From: Escherichia coli
Lineage (GTDB): Bacteria; Pseudomonadota; Gammaproteobacteria; Enterobacterales; Enterobacteriaceae
Assembly: GCF_036507355.1 (NCBI RefSeq)
Contig: NZ_AP027877.1
Reading direction: 5' to 3' (one strand)
DNA: 64,000 bases
The notes under the pieces are model-generated. The model was not told the DNA's origin, did not search any database, and was given only the letters and a program-made list of their open reading frames with translations. The translations under genes and the position numbers were made by a program. Positions 7,032-52,398 of this stretch are shown here, piece by piece; position 1 is the stretch's first letter, and every line of letters begins with the position of its first letter.

Positions 7032-7222
7032 TTCTCCACCTCGTCTCTGTGAGCGGTGTTAACTTATTGTTTTACTTATACCCTATCATTAATGAATGCG
7101 CCAACTGTGATAGTGTCATCATTTTCAAAGCGTAAAATTGTGGCATTCTTCACTGTTCTATAAGTAAGACGTTTATTCTCCCTTTTCTTTCGTATTCCCG
7201 ATGATAAAAGGATGTCCCTGAT

Positions 7223-7231
7223 GATTAAGTT
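7223..7231. repeat. IS1 target-site duplication, left copy (GATTAAGTT)
   Basis: 9-mer immediately left of IS1 left inverted repeat, identical to 8000-8008. Confidence 0.9.
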
Positions 7232-7286
7232 GGTGATGCTGCCAACTTACTGATTTAGTGTATGATGGTGTTTTTGAGGTGCTCCA

Positions 7287-7562
7287 GTGGCTTCTGTTTC
7301 TATCAGCTGTCCCTCCTGTTCAGCTACTGACGGGGTGGTGCGTAACGGCAAAAGCACCGCCGGACATCAGCGCTATCTCTGCTCTCACTGCCGTAAAACA
7401 TGGCAACTGCAGTTCACTTACACCGCTTCTCAACCCGGTACGCACCAGAAAATCATTGATATGGCCATGAATGGCGTTGGATGCCGGGCAACAGCCCGCA
7501 TTATGGGCATTGGCCTCAACACGATTTTACGTCACTTAAAAAACTCAGGCCGCAGTCGGTAA
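7287..7562 (+). CDS. insA: IS1 InsA
   Basis: ORF track 91 aa, [40 protein letters not shown]... Confidence 0.95.
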
Positions 7563-7984
7563 CCTCGCGCATACAGCCGGGCAGTGACGTCATCGTCTGC
7601 GCGGAAATGGACGAACAGTGGGGCTATGTCGGGGCTAAATCGCGCCAGCGCTGGCTGTTTTACGCGTATGACAGGCTCCGGAAGACGGTTGTTGCGCACG
7701 TATTCGGTGAACGCACGATGGCGACGCTGGGGCGTCTTATGAGCCTGCTGTCACCCTTTGACGTGGTGATATGGATGACGGATGGCTGGCCGCTGTATGA
7801 ATCCCGCCTGAAGGGAAAGCTGCACGTAATCAGCAAGCGATATACGCAGCGAATTGAGCGGCATAACCTGAATCTGAGGCAGCACCTGGCACGGCTGGGA
7901 CGGAAGTCGCTGTCGTTCTCAAAATCGGTGGAGCTGCATGACAAAGTCATCGGGCATTATCTGAACATAAAACACTATCAATAA
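7481..7984 (+). CDS. insB: IS1 InsB reading frame (expressed as InsAB' by -1 frameshift)
   Basis: ORF track 167 aa overlapping insA 3' end in the -1 frame. Confidence 0.9.
7538..7544 (+). other. IS1 programmed -1 ribosomal frameshift motif A AAA AAC
   Basis: ttaaaaaac lies in the insA frame (L-K-N) within the insA/insB overlap. Confidence 0.8.
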
Positions 7985-7999
7985 GTTGGAGTCATTACC

Positions 8000-8008
8000 G
8001 ATTAAGTT
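8000..8008. repeat. IS1 target-site duplication, right copy (GATTAAGTT)
   Basis: Identical 9-mer immediately right of IS1 right inverted repeat. Confidence 0.9.
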
Positions 8009-9954
8009 TAGCGCAACGCTCCTGGCCACGCTGATTGCCGCCAGTGTGAATGCAGCGACGGTCGATCTGCGTATCATGGAAACCACTGATCTGCATAGCA
8101 ACATGATGGATTTCGATTATTACAAAGACACCGCCACGGAAAAATTCGGACTGGTACGTACGGCAAGCCTGATTAACGATGCCCGCAATGAAGTGAAAAA
8201 CAGCGTACTGGTCGATAACGGCGATTTGATTCAGGGGAGTCCGCTGGCCGATTACATGTCGGAGAAAGGATTAAAAGCAGGTGATGTTCATCCGGTTTAT
8301 AAGGCGCTGAATACGCTGGATTATACGGTCGGTACACTCGGCAATCATGAATTTAACTACGGTCTGGATTACCTGAAAAATGCGCTGGCGGGAGCGAAAT
8401 TCCCTTATGTAAATGCCAACGTCATTGACGCCAGAACCAAACAGCCAATGTTTACACCGTATTTAATTAAAGATACCGAAGTGGTCGATAAAGACGGAAA
8501 AAAACAGACGCTGAAGATTGGCTATATTGGCGTCGTGCCGCCGCAAATCATGGGCTGGGATAAAGCTAATTTATCCGGAAAAGTGACGGTGAATGATATT
8601 ACCGAAACCGTGCGCAAATACGTGCCTGAAATGCGCGAGAAAGGTGCCGATGTCGTTGTCGTTCTGGCGCATTCCGGGCTGTCTGCCGATCCGTATAAAG
8701 TAATGGCGGAAAACTCAGTTTATTACCTCAGTGAAATTCCGGGCGTTAACGCCATTATGTTTGGCCATGCTCACGCCGTTTTCCCGGGTAAAGATTTTGC
8801 TGATATCGAAGGGGCTGATATCACCAAAGGCACGCTGAATGGTGTTCCGGCGGTAATGCCGGGCATGTGGGGCGATCATCTTGGTGTGGTCGACTTACAA
8901 CTCAGTAATGACAGCGGTAAATGGCAGGTGACGCAAGCGAAAGCGGAAGCACGACCGATTTACGACATCGCTAATAAAAAATCCCTCGCGGCGGAAGACA
9001 GCAAGCTGGTAGAAACACTCAAAGCCGATCACGATGCCACACGCCAGTTCGTCAGCAAGCCAATCGGTAAATCTGCCGACAATATGTATAGCTATCTGGC
9101 GCTGGTGCAGGACGATCCGACCGTGCAGGTGGTGAACAACGCGCAAAAAGCGTATGTCGAGCATTACATTCAGGGCGATCCGGATCTGGCAAAACTGCCG
9201 GTGCTTTCAGCTGCCGCACCGTTTAAAGTTGGTGGTCGCAAAAATGACCCGGCAAGCTATGTAGAGGTGGAAAAAGGTCAGCTGACTTTCCGTAATGCCG
9301 CCGATCTTTATCTCTATCCCAATACGCTGATTGTGGTGAAAGCCAGCGGTAAAGAGGTGAAAGAGTGGCTGGAGTGCTCCGCCGGACAGTTTAACCAGAT
9401 TGATCCCAACAGCACGAAACCACAGTCACTCATCAACTGGGACGGTTTCCGCACCTATAACTTTGATGTTATTGATGGTGTGAATTATCAGATTGATGTT
9501 ACCCAGCCCGCCCGTTATGACGGCGAGTGCCAGATGATTAATGCCAATGCGGAAAGGATTAAGAACCTGACCTTTAATGGCAAGCCGATTGATCCGAACG
9601 CTATGTTCCTCGTTGCCACCAATAACTATCGCGCTTACGGCGGCAAATTTGCCGGTACGGGCGACAGCCATATCGCTTTTGCTTCACCGGATGAGAACCG
9701 CTCGGTGCTGGCAGCGTGGATTGCTGATGAGTCGAAACGTGCGGGGGAAATTCACCCGGCGGCAGATAACAACTGGCGTTTAGCACCGATAGCTGGCGAT
9801 AAGAAACTGGATATCCGTTTCGAAACCTCTCCGTCAGATAAAGCCGCAGCGTTTATTAAAGAGAAAGGGCAATATCCGATGAATAAAGTCGCGACCGATG
9901 ATATCGGGTTTGCGATTTATCAGGTGGATTTGAGTAAGTAAAACACTTCTTTTT

Positions 9955-20167: not shown

Positions 20168-20847
20168 TTACTTCTGCCCGTAATAAGCGTTGGGACCGTG
20201 CTTACGCATGAAGTGTTTATTCATCAGGTAGCTGTCGATGTGATTGAGTTGTGGGTTAATGCCGCGGGCAATCCACGCCATTTTCGCCACTTCTTCCATC
20301 ACCACCGCGTTATGCACCGCATCGTGAGCATCTTTCCCCCAGGCGAACGGCCCGTGCTGATACACCACAATTCCCGGCGTATGCAGCGGCTCGGCGTTGC
20401 CCAGCGTTTCGATAATCACTTTGCCGGTGTTCAGTTCATACTCGCCCTGCACCTCTTCTTCGCTTAACCCGCGCGTACACGGAATGTCGCCAAAGAAGTA
20501 GTCGGCGTGCGTGGTGCCTAACGCCGGGATCGCCAGCCCCGCCTGCGCCCATGCGGTAGCATGAGTTGAGTGGGTATGGACAATGCCGCCAAGCGACGGG
20601 TAACGACGGTAGAGTTCAAGATGCGTCGCGGTGTCGGAAGACGGACGATATTCCCCTTCCACCACCTTACCGCTCATATCGACCACCACCATATCGTCTG
20701 CTTTCATGGGGCGACGCCGCTGGGCTTGATCACCACCAGCCCGCGTTCGCGGTCGATAGCGCTGACGTTGCCCCAAGTAAAGGTCACCAGCCCATAGCGC
20801 GGCAGATCCATGTTGGCTTCAAACACCTGCTGTTTTAGCTTTTGCAT
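20168..20847 (-). pseudogene. ulaF: L-ribulose-5-phosphate 4-epimerase (class II aldolase family), apparently frameshifted
   Basis: N-terminal 47 codons ([46 protein letters not shown]) end at TGA 20704-20706; the rest ([18 protein letters not shown]...YYGQK) continues in another frame to 20168. Confidence 0.75.
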
Positions 20848-21701
20848 TATGCCGCCTCCACCATGCCCGCTTTCGCCATGCGCGCTTTCACCCAATCACG
20901 CGCTTTCGCCACTTCTGCCGCCGGGTCTTCCGCCGTTTCGCTCCACATCTCAATCAGGTATGGCCCGCAATAGCCACTCTGTTTGAGCGTTTCGAAACAA
21001 CGTTCGAAATCCACTACACCTTCGCCAAACGGCACGTTTTTGAAGACGCCCGGTTTGGTGTCTTTCACATGCACCGCGACGATATGCCCGATTCCGGCCT
21101 GCAACTCCATCTGCACGTCGTTATCCCACGCCGACAGGTTGCCGATATCCGGGTAGAGCTGGAACCACGGATTGTTGAGATAGTGCGCGTAGCCCAGCGC
21201 CTTGCTGATGGAGTTCATCAACGGATAATCCATGATCTCCATCGCCAGCGTCACCTGCGCGCGGCTTGCCATCTCAACGCTCTCTTTCAGGCCGTCACGG
21301 AAACGACGACGCGTTTCGTTATTGGCTTCCTGATAGTAAACGTCATAGCCCGCCAGCTGGATCACGCGAATACCGACATCCTGGGCGAACTGGATAGCTT
21401 TACGCATAATCTCCAGCCCCTGCGCCCGCACCGCGTCATCTTCACTGCCCAGCGGGAAACGACGATGAGCAGAAAGGCACATGGACGGCACGCGCACGCC
21501 GGTTTCAACAATCGCATTGACCAGCGCCAGACGCTGCTCGCGGCTCCAGTCGAGGCGCGACAGGCGCTCGTCCGTTTCATCTACCGACATCTCGACAAAA
21601 TCGAAGCCCAACGTTTTTGCCAGTTGCAGGCGTTCCAGCCAGCACTCCCCGGCGGGGAGCGCTTTTTCATAGATGCCAAGCGGGATTTGTTTGGACAACA
21701 T
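20847..21701 (-). CDS. ulaE: L-ribulose-5-phosphate 3-epimerase
   Basis: ORF track 284 aa; stop overlaps ulaF start (TAATG). Confidence 0.95.
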
Positions 21702-30355: not shown

Positions 30356-31519
30356 TTATCCAGCAATGTAATGCGGAACGAAACGTGAGGTGTCTTTGGT
30401 GATCAGCGTGTTATCTTCACGGATCCCCATTCCGCACGCTTCATCATCGACAATCCAGCTACCGATGAGTGTGTAGCTATCGCCAAACCGCGGCAGAGGT
30501 TGAAACGCCTGGTAGATCATCGGTTCATCGGCGTAATCACCATCAGCGTGGTCAACGACGTTATTCTGGCCGTCGAAAATGGTGACATTTCCGCCTTCGC
30601 GCGAGTAGATCGGTTTACGCACATAGCTTTCGCCAGCGGCAATCTGCGGTTTTTCACCCTCAAACCAGGATGCAAGAAGGTTAGGATGACCAGGGAAGAA
30701 GCGCCAAAGCAGCGGCATTAGCCCTTTATTACTCAAGATACTTTTCCATAACGGCTCCACCCATTGCTCGCGACGCTTGCGCAGCAGCGGACCATTATCG
30801 TCACGCATCATCCACTCCAGCGGATACAGCTTAAATGCACGCTGGATGACATTATCATCAAGATCGGTCAGTACGCCGCCGACGCCCAAACCGAGATCTT
30901 CAATGTAGATAAACCGCGACTCCTGCCCTGCCTGCTGGGCGCAGTCCTGCAAGTACAGCACGGTACTCCTGTCTTCATCGGTGTCCTGACAGCAGCAAAA
31001 ATAAAACGGTTCCCGACTGTAAAGCTCACTAAAGCGCGAAATCAGGCGTTCCTGAATAGCATTGTACTGATCGGCATCACGGGGAATAATGCCGCTGCGC
31101 CGGGCATCCTCCAGCCACAGCCACTGGAAATAAGCCGACTCGTACAATGAAGTCGGCGTATCGGCGTTGTACTCCAGCAGCTTCACCGGCGCATTGCCAC
31201 ACCAGGCAAAATCCATCCGTCCATACAGCGAAGGATCGCGTGCGCGCCAGCTTTCAGCGATCACATCCCAGTACAACGGCGGGATCGCCAGTTGCGTCAG
31301 GATCTCTTCATCTTTTACCGCGCGATCCACCACCTCAAGGCACATCTGATGCAGTTCCGCAGTCGGTTTTTCGATCTGCTCTTCAATCTGGCGCAGAGTA
31401 AAGCGGTAAGCCCGACTCTCATCCCAATAGATTTCATTGTCGATGATATGAAAGTCGAAACCGTTGTCAGCGGCGATCTGGTCCAGATCCCGCCGCACAG
31501 GAACGTTGTGTCTCAGCAT
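30356..31519 (-). CDS. yjfC: Glutathionylspermidine synthase-like ATP-grasp protein (no amidase domain)
   Basis: ORF track 30356..31534; start MLRHNVPVRRDLDQIAAD..., 387 aa. Confidence 0.85.
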   Translation of the reverse strand: MLRHNVPVRRDLDQIAADNGFDFHIIDNEIYWDESRAYRFTLRQIEEQIEKPTAELHQMCLEVVDRAVKDEEILTQLAIPPLYWDVIAESWRARDPSLYGRMDFAWCGNAPVKLLEYNADTPTSLYESAYFQWLWLEDARRSGIIPRDADQYNAIQERLISRFSELYSREPFYFCCCQDTDEDRSTVLYLQDCAQQAGQESRFIYIEDLGLGVGGVLTDLDDNVIQRAFKLYPLEWMMRDDNGPLLRKRREQWVEPLWKSILSNKGLMPLLWRFFPGHPNLLASWFEGEKPQIAAGESYVRKPIYSREGGNVTIFDGQNNVVDHADGDYADEPMIYQAFQPLPRFGDSYTLIGSWIVDDEACGMGIREDNTLITKDTSRFVPHYIAG

Positions 31520-31521
31520 GA

Positions 31522-32160
31522 TTAGCCTCCCCAATGCCCACGGGCGCTGGAAGAACGACCATAGCCGCCGCGCGAAACGGTTGACGCTTTTTTGGTGGTA
31601 AAGCCGCCTGAAGAGTAAGACTCTTTTTTGCCAGAACCGGAGCGCCAGGAGTAATCACCGGAAGTGTTGCGCCAGACGGGGCGGGAAGCAAATGAGGATC
31701 CGCCGCTGTTATAGACGAACGGCTCATCGCGATCTTTACGAATAACCCGGCTTAACAAAAATCCAGAAACGACCGGGATCCAACTCTGTTCAACATTGTC
31801 GTAGTAGCAATTTTCGTACTTAGACTGACAGTTCTGCTGAGTCATATTCTTCGGAACATCGGCATAAAATGCTGCTTTGGCGTTGTTCCAGCCACGCGCG
31901 CAAATGTCGGCATTATTACCGTCATCAATACAATCCTGCACAGTCGAGTAAAACGTTCCGTCGCCGTCGTTATCGACATCGCTACTTTCACTCCATCCTT
32001 TGACTATTAAAAAAGCGGCACCGCCCATTAGCGCCAACGTTAAGTATTTTTGTGCGTAACGATTGCGACGCGGTTCAAAAGGATTATTCGGTCTGCCAAT
32101 GCGACTGATCGCTCCGTGACCAATTTTACTGTTATTTCTTGATTTGCGTTTTCTGGCCAT
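31522..32160 (-). CDS. yjfM: DUF1190 protein
   Basis: ORF track 212 aa; basic N-terminus, one TM segment, Gly/Ser-rich C-terminus. Confidence 0.85.
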   Translation of the reverse strand: MARKRKSRNNSKIGHGAISRIGRPNNPFEPRRNRYAQKYLTLALMGGAAFLIVKGWSESSDVDNDGDGTFYSTVQDCIDDGNNADICARGWNNAKAAFYADVPKNMTQQNCQSKYENCYYDNVEQSWIPVVSGFLLSRVIRKDRDEPFVYNSGGSSFASRPVWRNTSGDYSWRSGSGKKESYSSGGFTTKKASTVSRGGYGRSSSARGHWGG

Positions 32161-33244
32161 GATCGTCCATTACCATGTCATACATGGCTGCGTTAAAAAT
32201 ACCACCAGCCAGTGCGGCGGTTCCCATAAACATTCCTGCTGCGGTATTGTGATTAATAATTTTTTCGCTTAATGCGGGCATATAAAGTCTGACACCAGCA
32301 AAAACGAGTAACTGAATCACTAGTGCAATCCCGCCCCAGGCGAAATAGTCTGGAATACTCACCGCATTGATTGCCGCACTGGATAAGGGGATCACGTAAC
32401 CCAACAATGTACCGCTGAATGCCAGTGACGCCGCGGTATTATTGTTTTTGATTAATTGCCATTCGTTGTGCGGTGTAATTTTGGAGTAGATAAACAGAAA
32501 AATAATCACCATAGCCACGCCAATAAAAAAATAGGCACTAAAGGCAAGAAGTGAATCCAGTATATGCATTGTAAACGTCCTTGTAATTAACCAATAATAT
32601 GAAGTGATGTCAGCGGGATATCGACACCCAGCGCGCGAAAATAACCACTCTGGCTCGCCGAGATCGTTAAAAGATTCCTCACCATTTAACAGCAAATATT
32701 CGTAAGTATCTTCGGTCACTTGCCGCTGGTAACCCATGGTAAAATTATGGACTTCCCATTTGGCATGGTTTTGATTTTCTACTTTTTCCAGCATGTAGAC
32801 GGGTTCGATATTTCCCGGTTCTTCGCTGTTAAAAAATCGCTGCCAGCGTTTTTCCTGCCAGTTTAAGGTCATTGCCCCCATCGCTTTGGCGTTGATCGCC
32901 TCGCGCCAGTGACTCTCTTTACTGATACCGTAGCTCTCTTCATAGACAAAGAGCTTGATATCATCAATGTCATCAATATCTTCGCCGCCGGTGGTATTGA
33001 TTTGCAGAAACTCATCGCCTGAAGTGTAGTAGCGGAAAATCTGGCTACCGCCGCCCAGATCGATGTGACTGACAGCGGCTACCGTAAATTCCTCACCCGG
33101 CAGCGCAATCAGCAATTCATCTTCCAGCAAACGAAACGCTAACGTGTCGAGCGTAAAGCCACTATTAAGATGAAGGCCCAGCGGACCGCGAGCGATTGCA
33201 GGCTTATTATCCTTGCCAAACAGACGCTGGAAAAAACCAGACAT
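32132..33244 (-). CDS. yjfK-yjfL: Single 370-aa ORF joining a YjfK-like (DUF2491) N-terminal part to a YjfL-like (DUF350) C-terminal part
   Basis: ORF track 32132..33244 continuous; internal ATG at 32567-32569 (MHILDSLLAF...) preceded by aagga SD marks the yjfL start; the upstream 225 codons are YjfK-like. Confidence 0.7.
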   Translation of the reverse strand: MSGFFQRLFGKDNKPAIARGPLGLHLNSGFTLDTLAFRLLEDELLIALPGEEFTVAAVSHIDLGGGSQIFRYYTSGDEFLQINTTGGEDIDDIDDIKLFVYEESYGISKESHWREAINAKAMGAMTLNWQEKRWQRFFNSEEPGNIEPVYMLEKVENQNHAKWEVHNFTMGYQRQVTEDTYEYLLLNGEESFNDLGEPEWLFSRAGCRYPADITSYYWLITRTFTMHILDSLLAFSAYFFIGVAMVIIFLFIYSKITPHNEWQLIKNNNTAASLAFSGTLLGYVIPLSSAAINAVSIPDYFAWGGIALVIQLLVFAGVRLYMPALSEKIINHNTAAGMFMGTAALAGGIFNAAMYDMVMDDHGQKTQIKK

Positions 33245-33294
33245 ATTTTATCCTTAAAATAGTTGCCAGCCTTGCAGTGAGGCTGGCAAAAAAA

Positions 33295-33993
33295 TTACTC
33301 GCCCTGTTGGCGTTGCAGTCTTGCTAATACATCCTGGGCGCTACTTTTATTGCTACCGCCAATTCCGGCTTCCGCCAGCTTTTCATCAAGATCGCGACCG
33401 TCTGCGACTTTCTCCAACTGTGCGGCAGCATCCAGGCGAGCCTGACGTTCGGCCTGACGCGTTTGCAGGCGTTTTAAGGATTCTGCCGCTGTCGAAACGC
33501 TGGAAGATGCGCCAACGGTAGAGGTTGTTACAGCCTGTTGTGCACGCTGCATGGCTTCAGTGGCTTTAACGACTTCCATTTGCTGCTCAAACTGAGCGAT
33601 ACGCTGCGCTGTCGCTGTAACTGCTTTTTCCACGCCATCACGGGAGACTTCCAGATTCGACAACACTTGCTCTTCAGCGGTAATGAGATTCTCAAGGCGC
33701 GCGATTTCTTCAGCAACTTCGTTAATCAACGACGGATTAACGTTCTTGCTTAACGCTTCCAGCGCACGGGCTTCCAGACTGGCTTTGCGCTCACGTAAAT
33801 CTTTCAGCTTATCGTGACTTAATTTCACCCGCGCCAGCAGATCAACGCGAGATTTTCCGGCTTTATCGAGTTCAGCTTTAGCGTCACGAATATACTGTTC
33901 CAGCATGCGCACACCCTGGGTTTCTTCAATGGACTCTTCCGCCTGGGAGATAAACGATTTCCCCAGCGTAAATAAACTTTTTAAAATTCCCAT
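33295..33993 (-). CDS. yjfJ: PspA/IM30-family protein
   Basis: ORF track 232 aa; coiled-coil-rich. Confidence 0.9.
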   Translation of the reverse strand: MGILKSLFTLGKSFISQAEESIEETQGVRMLEQYIRDAKAELDKAGKSRVDLLARVKLSHDKLKDLRERKASLEARALEALSKNVNPSLINEVAEEIARLENLITAEEQVLSNLEVSRDGVEKAVTATAQRIAQFEQQMEVVKATEAMQRAQQAVTTSTVGASSSVSTAAESLKRLQTRQAERQARLDAAAQLEKVADGRDLDEKLAEAGIGGSNKSSAQDVLARLQRQQGE

Positions 33994-34011
33994 AAATACC
34001 CGTCCTTGTAA

Positions 34012-34413
34012 TTAGTGTGAATATTCTTCTGTAATTTCAGCCAGATCCAATGCGTTATCTACCAGCGAGGTTATCTCAAGCAGGATATCTTCAAGAGAAG
34101 ATTTAAGCGATAACGCCCCGAAAACAATGTAATACTCTTCCTGTTGCACGCTGGAGATTCCTACCGATGACAACGGCATCATCTTCTGATTTCTTAATAA
34201 GAAGGTATTAAATTCATCTGGATTGCTGATACTACTTACCGGACAAATAAAGGTTTCGATAACCATTTGGCGGGAAGTAAAAAGAATATTGATTTGCAAA
34301 TCGCCATAATCATTCATTTTAATAATTAATGCGTTCTCGCTATTTGTTACATCAATATTTTGTTCATGTACAGTTTGCAGCGCCGTCGCCAGCGCCAACG
34401 GATTCCATGTCAT
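34012..34413 (-). CDS. yjfI: DUF2170 protein
   Basis: ORF track 133 aa. Confidence 0.85.
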   Translation of the reverse strand: MTWNPLALATALQTVHEQNIDVTNSENALIIKMNDYGDLQINILFTSRQMVIETFICPVSSISNPDEFNTFLLRNQKMMPLSSVGISSVQQEEYYIVFGALSLKSSLEDILLEITSLVDNALDLAEITEEYSH

Positions 34414-51965: not shown

Positions 51966-52000
51966 TTGGGTGGTCTGTGCCTTACAGCACTTTCAAATTT

Positions 52001-52076
<76 letters not shown>

Positions 52077-52112
52077 TTGGGTGGTCTGTGCTTTACAGCA
52101 CTTTTCAAATTT

Positions 52113-52188
<76 letters not shown>

Positions 52189-52398
52189 GTACTACTTAAT
52201 TTTGCTTTCGTAATTTTCGCATTTCTGCGTCGTTACGGGAGGCGCATTATACGAGAAATCTTTCCCTCTGCAACCCCCCTAAAAAATTTTTTTTGAGTTT
52301 TTATCTCAAGTGCTGAAATTATCAGCAAGACGTTCAATTTAGCGTCAAAATCACGCCGCCGCAAGTGGATTCCGGCGCTTACGTGACCAGCAAAAATT

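Follow-up and report, generated by a model that had tools for sequence, protein, structure and literature searches.

The yjfK and yjfL genes of Escherichia coli read as a single open reading frame (ORF) of 370 codons in the 64-kb stretch of DNA analyzed here (hereafter, the window). With a probability of about 0.82, this ORF is the result of a genuine, clonally inherited, degradative frameshift that joins yjfK to yjfL, would abolish the function of YjfK and would create a conflict with the predicted membrane topology of YjfL. Under the scenario that we favor, a 2-bp deletion within the last 14 yjfK codons (site 1) would move the ribosome into the yjfL frame, the deletion would have been preceded by a +1 change (T>CA) near the stop codon of yjfL (site 2), and the two sites together would produce the 370-aa ORF that ends 26 nt inside yjfM. 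Damage appears more likely than a new function given that the product would consist of a YjfK without its conserved C-terminal motif and a YjfL with a 225-residue N-terminal extension.

The yjfIJKLMC operon in the window

The window represents a normal stretch of the E. coli chromosome (tamB ... ula ... yjfIJKLMC ... hfq ... frd) that is collinear with complete genomes and is 99.2% identical to the best complete genome over 22 kb. To our knowledge, no member of the yjfIJKLMC operon has a demonstrated biochemical function. The gene order and the flanks of the operon in the window are the same as in wild-type E. coli, and the other members are intact: yjfI (DUF2170, 34012-34413, minus strand) and yjfJ (PspA/IM30, 33295-33993, minus strand) are located upstream of the fused ORF, and yjfM (DUF1190, 212 aa, 31522..32160, minus strand) starts inside it. 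Compared with the wild type, yjfK and yjfL are joined, YjfK lacks 14 residues, and 17 new residues take the place of CMTW at the end of YjfL. The products of these genes, namely YjfI (CesT/Tir-like), YjfJ (PspA/IM30), YjfK (DUF2491), YjfL (DUF350, 4TM), the lipoprotein YjfM (DUF1190) and the ATP-grasp protein YjfC, which is similar to GSP synthetase, have been described as a PspA-associated, polyamine-linked neighborhood (PMC11237479), and yjfIJKL has been proposed to be a heat-tolerance operon that forms one regulon (PMC12492005).

The region from yjfI to yjfC (30356-34413) shows mosaic divergence between O145-like and K-12-like relatives. The yjfM gene has 0-1 differences in 610 positions from O145-like strains but 25-28 in 610 from K-12-like loci, whereas for yjfC the relationship is reversed (33-53 differences from O145-like and 9-12 from K-12-like sequences). 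These opposite patterns indicate a recombination breakpoint near the yjfM/yjfC boundary.

Anatomy of the fused ORF

The fused ORF occupies positions 32132..33244 on the minus strand (370 codons followed by TAA) and encodes a protein with a predicted mass of 41.7 kDa. A Pfam search identifies DUF2491 (PF10679) at residues 4-203 (model positions 1-197 of 210, E = 3.7e-67) and DUF350 (PF03994) at residues 229-354 (model positions 3-132 of 133, E = 4.9e-31). The presence of both domains indicates that this is not a chance ORF and bears out the original prediction that one 370-aa frame spans yjfK and yjfL. The YjfK-derived part (residues 1-205, 32630..33244, minus strand) does not differ from the most frequent E. 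coli YjfK in this segment and ends with A205, encoded by the GCT codon at 32630-32632. Pairwise alignments place site 1 at 32630..32637 (minus strand), where the deletion junction (32630|32631) adjoins a CGCGCGC tract (32631-32637). There follows a linker of 20 out-of-frame codons (GCRYPADITSYYWLITRTFT, residues 206-225, 32570..32629, minus strand), which matches nothing and takes the place of the conserved YjfK C-terminus LGVDIPLTSLHIIG. The old yjfK stop codon, TAA at 32587..32589, falls within the linker out of frame. When the alternative frame is read after the tract, the sequence ...FRALGVDIPLTSLHIIG is followed by this same TAA, which is the normal C-terminus of the 219-aa YjfK, as had been anticipated. 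The predicted peptides across the fusion junction are ...FSRAGCR and YPADITSYYWLITR.

The signals for separate translation of yjfL are retained: the Shine-Dalgarno sequence AAGGA (32578..32582, minus strand) is intact 8 nt 5' of the native ATG (32567-32569, minus strand), which encodes residue 226 of the fusion. The coordinates previously assigned to A205, the tract, AAGGA and the yjfL ATG all hold on re-reading of the sequence. The YjfL-derived part (32186..32569, minus strand), delineated by translation and the Pfam match, comprises YjfL residues 1-128, which correspond to fusion residues 226-353. It is followed by site 2, a T>CA change (net +1) at 32185..32186 on the minus strand, and by a new 17-aa tail, MYDMVMDDHGQKTQIKK, with the terminal TAA (residues 354-370, 32132..32185, minus strand) in place of CMTW and its stop.

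The geometry of the locus accounts for the continuity of the frame. In normal E. coli, the yjfL frame is free of stops for 33 codons 5' of the ATG, i.e., from about codon 193 of yjfK, so that translation from the yjfK start can run through the linker into and through yjfL, and any -2/+1 indel in the last 27 or so yjfK codons fuses the two genes.

The 2-bp deletion at site 1 and its origin

Alignment with the E. coli genomes RM9872 and Z1323HEC0422 shows TTTTCGCGCGCG-TT-GGG in the reference and TTTTCGCGCGC-T-GGG in the window, i.e., 2 bp are lost at the 3' edge of the CG tract. The same 2-bp gap at the frame junction is present in comparisons with at least 11 other loci, and the length of this indel is not divisible by three. 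The frameshift was thus correctly located at the GC tract in the original prediction, which ascribed it to the gain or loss of one GC unit; this second part stands only if the ancestor carried a particular synonymous allele. Relative to the common allele, CGCGCGCG-TT-GGG, the window sequence CGCGCGC-T-GGG lacks GT (frame -2). All 11 unfused relatives first sampled carry GCGCGCGTT at site 1, so that the minimal event is the loss of GT, which is not a repeat unit. There is, however, a synonymous Leu206 CTG allele in E. coli, (CG)4C-TGGG, whose carriers read GCGCGCGCT; the window is exactly one CG/GC unit away from it. This allele matches a 95-nt hypothetical ancestor at 100% in at least 8 complete genomes (77 records at 99% or higher). 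An unfused junction would read CGCGCGCGTT or CGCGCGCGCT.

The CTG allele was not found among the nearest relatives of the window that were sampled, all of which carry TTG, and the CTG strains are no nearer to the window than others (16 differences in 675 bp of yjfK). Slippage by one GC unit is a possible, but not the minimal, origin of site 1. The yjfK gene of the window has five private substitutions, all of them synonymous, which makes an earlier T>C change plausible. As judged from the aligned alleles, site 1 may have originated either in one step (loss of GT) or in two (T>C followed by slippage). The repaired 219-aa YjfK is present in 54,911 blocks of the collection. The identity of residues 1-205 to the commonest YjfK, together with the exclusively synonymous private substitutions, points to purifying selection on yjfK until recently.

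The +1 change at site 2

At site 2, the reference sequence GCAGCT-TGTATG (GCAGCT-TGTATGACATGGTAA) is replaced in the window by GCAGCCATGTATG (T>CA, net +1; alignment with RM9872 and Z1323HEC0422), so that the last four YjfL residues and the stop codon (CMTW*) are exchanged for the 17 new residues. Because of this frame change, the fused ORF is 13 codons longer than a simple fusion of yjfK and yjfL and overlaps yjfM: the new stop codon (32132-32134) is located 26 nt inside yjfM (ATG at 32158-32160), which creates a 29-nt overlap (32132-32160). Site 2 and the broken genes nearby were missed in the original prediction.

Three metagenomic contigs (L016-L018) encode a standalone 145-aa YjfL with exactly the same tail and, adjacent to it, an intact 219-aa YjfK. 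These contigs have AGCCA at site 2 and an intact site 1, and are 97-98.7% identical to the window. Among 5,426 complete RefSeq genomes, none has the site-2 allele at full length, and a fusion with the normal CMTW end was not found in the collection. To judge by these sequences, the site-2 allele evidently is tolerated and circulates on several, rarely sampled backgrounds, and the 2-bp deletion is probably clone-specific and later than site 2, an order suggested by a small number of contigs from metagenomes, none of which is closely related to the window. Another 145-aa protein (P0023) was considered as a YjfL with the extended tail but proved to be a YjfL with a rearranged N-terminus.

A real allele of a narrow lineage

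The deletion is real in the DNA and is clonally inherited, as established at the level of assemblies. The original prediction had left room for a miscall in the tract, with the genes actually separate, and short GC-rich repeats are indeed a classic site of indel errors. Furthermore, the junction is shared by no complete RefSeq E. coli genome: a search with the 80-nt junction finds the deletion in 0 of 4,959 matching genomes, and the best match, at 97.6% identity, differs by the 2-bp gap itself. The same search disposes of the possibility, raised at the outset, that reference genomes would show a continuous frame, because none of the 4,959 has the deletion that joins yjfK to yjfL. Nevertheless, six contigs that stem from different assemblies and sequencing runs encode the identical 370-aa product. 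One of these, a 4.64-Mb chromosome, encodes exactly this protein as BED24104.1 (VEE46_38720), and five further contigs do likewise. All three loci that were fetched contain both indels. The draft assembly GCA_905398585.1 (L002) matches the window without a single difference over 7,113 bp, and the Logan assemblies of SRR17480487 (L003) and SRR31122001 (L004) differ from it by one SNP each, at different positions (31901 and 29782, respectively), which means that the latter two are not copies of one assembly. The fused allele is thus shared by three genotypes that differ by single SNPs. The 22 kb compared with the best reference include 179 substitutions but only three indels, namely sites 1 and 2 and one in an intergenic poly-A run; hence the window assembly is not error-prone, and the surrounding sequence shows neither scattered frameshifts nor another coding indel. 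On these grounds a sequencing or assembly error is extremely improbable. The derived, fused state appears confined to a narrow lineage, represented by six contigs of one clone, and its persistence in at least three slightly diverged genotypes implies that the allele is not strongly deleterious.

Predicted effects on YjfK, YjfL and yjfM

The frame changes at residue 206, and YjfK loses its last 14 residues. The lost tail is conserved in homologs with 26-54% identity (consensus S-x-G-V-D-L...V-I-G); G207 occurs in 90% or more of the homologs, and the C-terminal motif is retained in 10 of the 11 aligned. The DUF2491 domain of the fusion is therefore incomplete, its last 13 model positions, with the C-terminal S-x-G-V-D-L...V-I-G segment, being unmatched. 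In the AlphaFold2 model of YjfK (pLDDT 89.8, pTM 0.84), one strand (198-209) straddles the frameshift point and another (215-218) follows it, and both belong to blocks with pLDDT of 92-97. According to this model, approximately 1.3 predicted beta-strands of YjfK are replaced by unrelated sequence. A comparison of the model with the PDB yields no match at E <= 0.001; the structures retrieved (avidins, PYL receptors, OmpW) have a TM-score of about 0.2 and provide no functional lead.

In YjfL, the Lys and Arg residues are confined to the loop 28-45 and to the vicinity of residues 93-106, so that, by the positive-inside rule, both termini are predicted to be periplasmic. This predicted N-out topology would be at odds with an extension of 225 cytoplasmic residues in which R208 and R222 immediately precede TM1. 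Because the yjfL Shine-Dalgarno sequence and ATG are intact, free YjfL (the 145-aa form, 15.8 kDa) is probably still produced by internal initiation at its own start. In normal genomes, yjfL and yjfM are separated by a 9-nt gap, which in the window is converted into the 29-nt overlap. The location of the yjfM start inside the upstream ORF, which is also seen in the L016-L018 backgrounds, may weaken translational coupling. Taken together, the lost conserved residues and strands and the predicted topology suggest that YjfK is probably impaired, and the level of YjfL is possibly reduced. It is the loss of the conserved tail and strands, along with the topology conflict, that leads us to read the fused allele as degradative.

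Recurrence of the fusion in Salmonella

The fusion in the window is a further case of a known, recurrent yjfK-yjfL event. In the Salmonella Enteritidis PT13a strain 21027, yjfK is joined to yjfL as the result of an 11-bp deletion at its 3' end (PMC3220660), and a yjfK-yjfL fusion by an 11-bp deletion is also reported for strain LK5 (PMC4454671). The Salmonella and E. coli cases involve an orthologous gene pair and a deletion at the yjfK 3' end with the same effect on the frame (-11 is equivalent to -2 modulo 3), and both are strain-level polymorphisms. They differ in that the Salmonella deletion removes 11 bp and reportedly the yjfL ribosome-binding site, whereas the window loses 2 bp and keeps the Shine-Dalgarno sequence and the ATG; moreover, in the window, a second, +1 lesion alters the YjfL C-terminus. 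The open 33-codon geometry explains why yjfK-yjfL fusions recur in different species. The recurrence could reflect tolerance or even benefit rather than a large mutational target alone. A paper on Shigella sp. JZ001 was considered as another precedent and set aside, yjfL there being only a genomic-island label.

The locus also resembles ordinary enterobacterial frameshift pseudogenes and 'fused ORF' annotations in that it involves a non-triplet indel that is rare among conspecifics, clonal, and located near an insertion sequence and other frameshifts. Most frameshifts, however, meet a stop within a few codons, whereas the alternative frame in the window is open for 33 codons into the start of the next gene.

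An exhaustive phmmer search started with the 370-aa protein against 1.84 billion representative proteins detects no DUF2491-DUF350 fusion among the best 150 of 930 hits, where a true two-domain relative would have had the top score. Each of these 150 hits covers one half of the query, apart from a few junction-spanning entries that are short, error-laden fragments or upstream-extended calls. The candidates for natural fusions P0041, P0058, P0059 and P0106 were rejected for this reason. Three more proteins, P0016, P0018 and P0020, proved to be other aberrant YjfK chimeras rather than fusions of YjfK with YjfL: YjfK residues 1-211 with an unrelated sequence, residues 1-142 with the C-terminal part of YjfJ, and residues 1-122 with the C-terminal part of YjfM, respectively. 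These chimeras suggest that parts of the operon were deleted or misassembled in other E. coli assemblies.

Alternative explanations

The fusion could, in principle, be functional and possibly advantageous, with the membrane protein YjfL serving as a tether for the soluble, beta-rich YjfK. In its favor, yjfK and yjfL are neighbors that are conserved together in operons of the PspA/polyamine type (PMC11237479) and share a regulon (PMC12492005), a fusion arose independently in Salmonella Enteritidis, the allele persists in the clone, and the product keeps 197 of the 210 model positions of DUF2491 as well as DUF350 almost in full. Against this stand the lack of the DUF2491-DUF350 architecture among the best 150 hits, the loss of the conserved YjfK C-terminus and its structured strands in favor of a linker that is simply out-of-frame sequence, and the predicted N-out end of YjfL, a poor anchor for a cytoplasmic domain. 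The allele is also rare and occurs amid other, plainly inactivating lesions. We therefore consider a functional fusion unlikely. It also appears unlikely that YjfK-YjfL is a stable, working chimera in which tethering is tolerated or favored, as the recurrence in E. coli and Salmonella Enteritidis might suggest. If it were, the chimera would be a 'Rosetta stone' indicating that YjfK and YjfL, partners of the PspA-like YjfJ system, are physically complexed at the inner membrane.

Two further possibilities concern the sequence around the tract. A phase-variation switch, with the (CG)n tract toggling the genes between the separate and the fused state, would fit a change at a dinucleotide tract that is one CG/GC unit away from the CTG-allele background. 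Yet the tract is merely 3.5-4 units long, and typical contingency repeats are far longer. The tract length is identical in the window, L002, L003 and L004, thousands of complete genomes show no length variation at the junction, and relative to the common TTG allele the lost GT is not a repeat unit; such a switch can be given hardly any credence. The other possibility is +1 slippage at UUA-UUU-UCG (32636-32644), where tRNA-Phe would re-pair on UUU-U and YjfK would be partially rescued. A U4 run does lie directly 5' of the deletion, and the +1 frame reads CGC GCG CUG GGU..., encoding RALGVDIPLTSLHIIG*, so that the product would be a near-native YjfK without Ser203 that ends at the old TAA (predicted peptide ...EWLFRALGVDIPL...). 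However, this rescue is purely conjectural, the U4 run is ancestral and is not linked to frameshifting in normal genomes, and spontaneous +1 slippage usually occurs at well below 1%, which makes appreciable rescue very unlikely. The locus does not qualify as a case of programmed frameshifting or recoding either: the orthologs are separate ORFs without interruption, and only the clone shows the discontinuity. A degradative frameshift inherited within the clone thus remains the preferred explanation.

Other lesions and indels in the window

Several other differences from the reference are detectable in the 64-kb window. In cpdB (plus strand, ATG at 7221), which encodes 2',3'-cyclic-nucleotide 2'-phosphodiesterase, a 768-bp IS1 (7232-7999) is inserted after codon 3 and disrupts the gene. 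The insertion is flanked (7221-8010) by a 9-bp target-site duplication, GATTAAGTT, on both sides and is absent from the reference NZ_CP148339.1. The ulaF gene (20168..~20850, minus strand) has a 7-bp deletion at about 20710 (TTTCGTA on the plus strand in the reference) that shifts the frame after approximately codon 46 and splits the 228-aa UlaF into two ORFs, one for the N-terminal part (63 aa, 20704..20895) and one for the C-terminal part (202 aa, 20168..20776). At about 16564, between yjfZ and ytfB, the window is without a 1.7-kb IS200/IS605 tnpA-tnpB insertion that splits a TetR-family gene in the reference. The remaining indels are an in-frame GGC insertion in amiB (48092), a 17-bp tandem duplication in the ytfK/paeA intergenic region (3957), and one additional A in the yjfI-rlmB intergenic poly-A run (34493). 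The tRNA-Gly cluster (~51999-52190) differs from the reference by one repeat unit of about 117 bp, and hence in tRNA-Gly copy number; a difference of a similar kind has been reported for Salmonella LK5 (PMC4454671). Four disruptive lesions among approximately 60 genes, as seen in a comparison with a single reference, suggest a lineage that is losing genes.

Implications

The 'hypothetical protein' BED24104.1 should be understood as the product of a yjfK gene that a frameshift has joined to a variant yjfL, and not as a new two-domain family. The clone carries a natural allele in which yjfK is truncated at the C-terminus and tethered to yjfL, and which could be used to probe the yjfIJKLMC operon, a PspA-like system and a candidate for heat tolerance.
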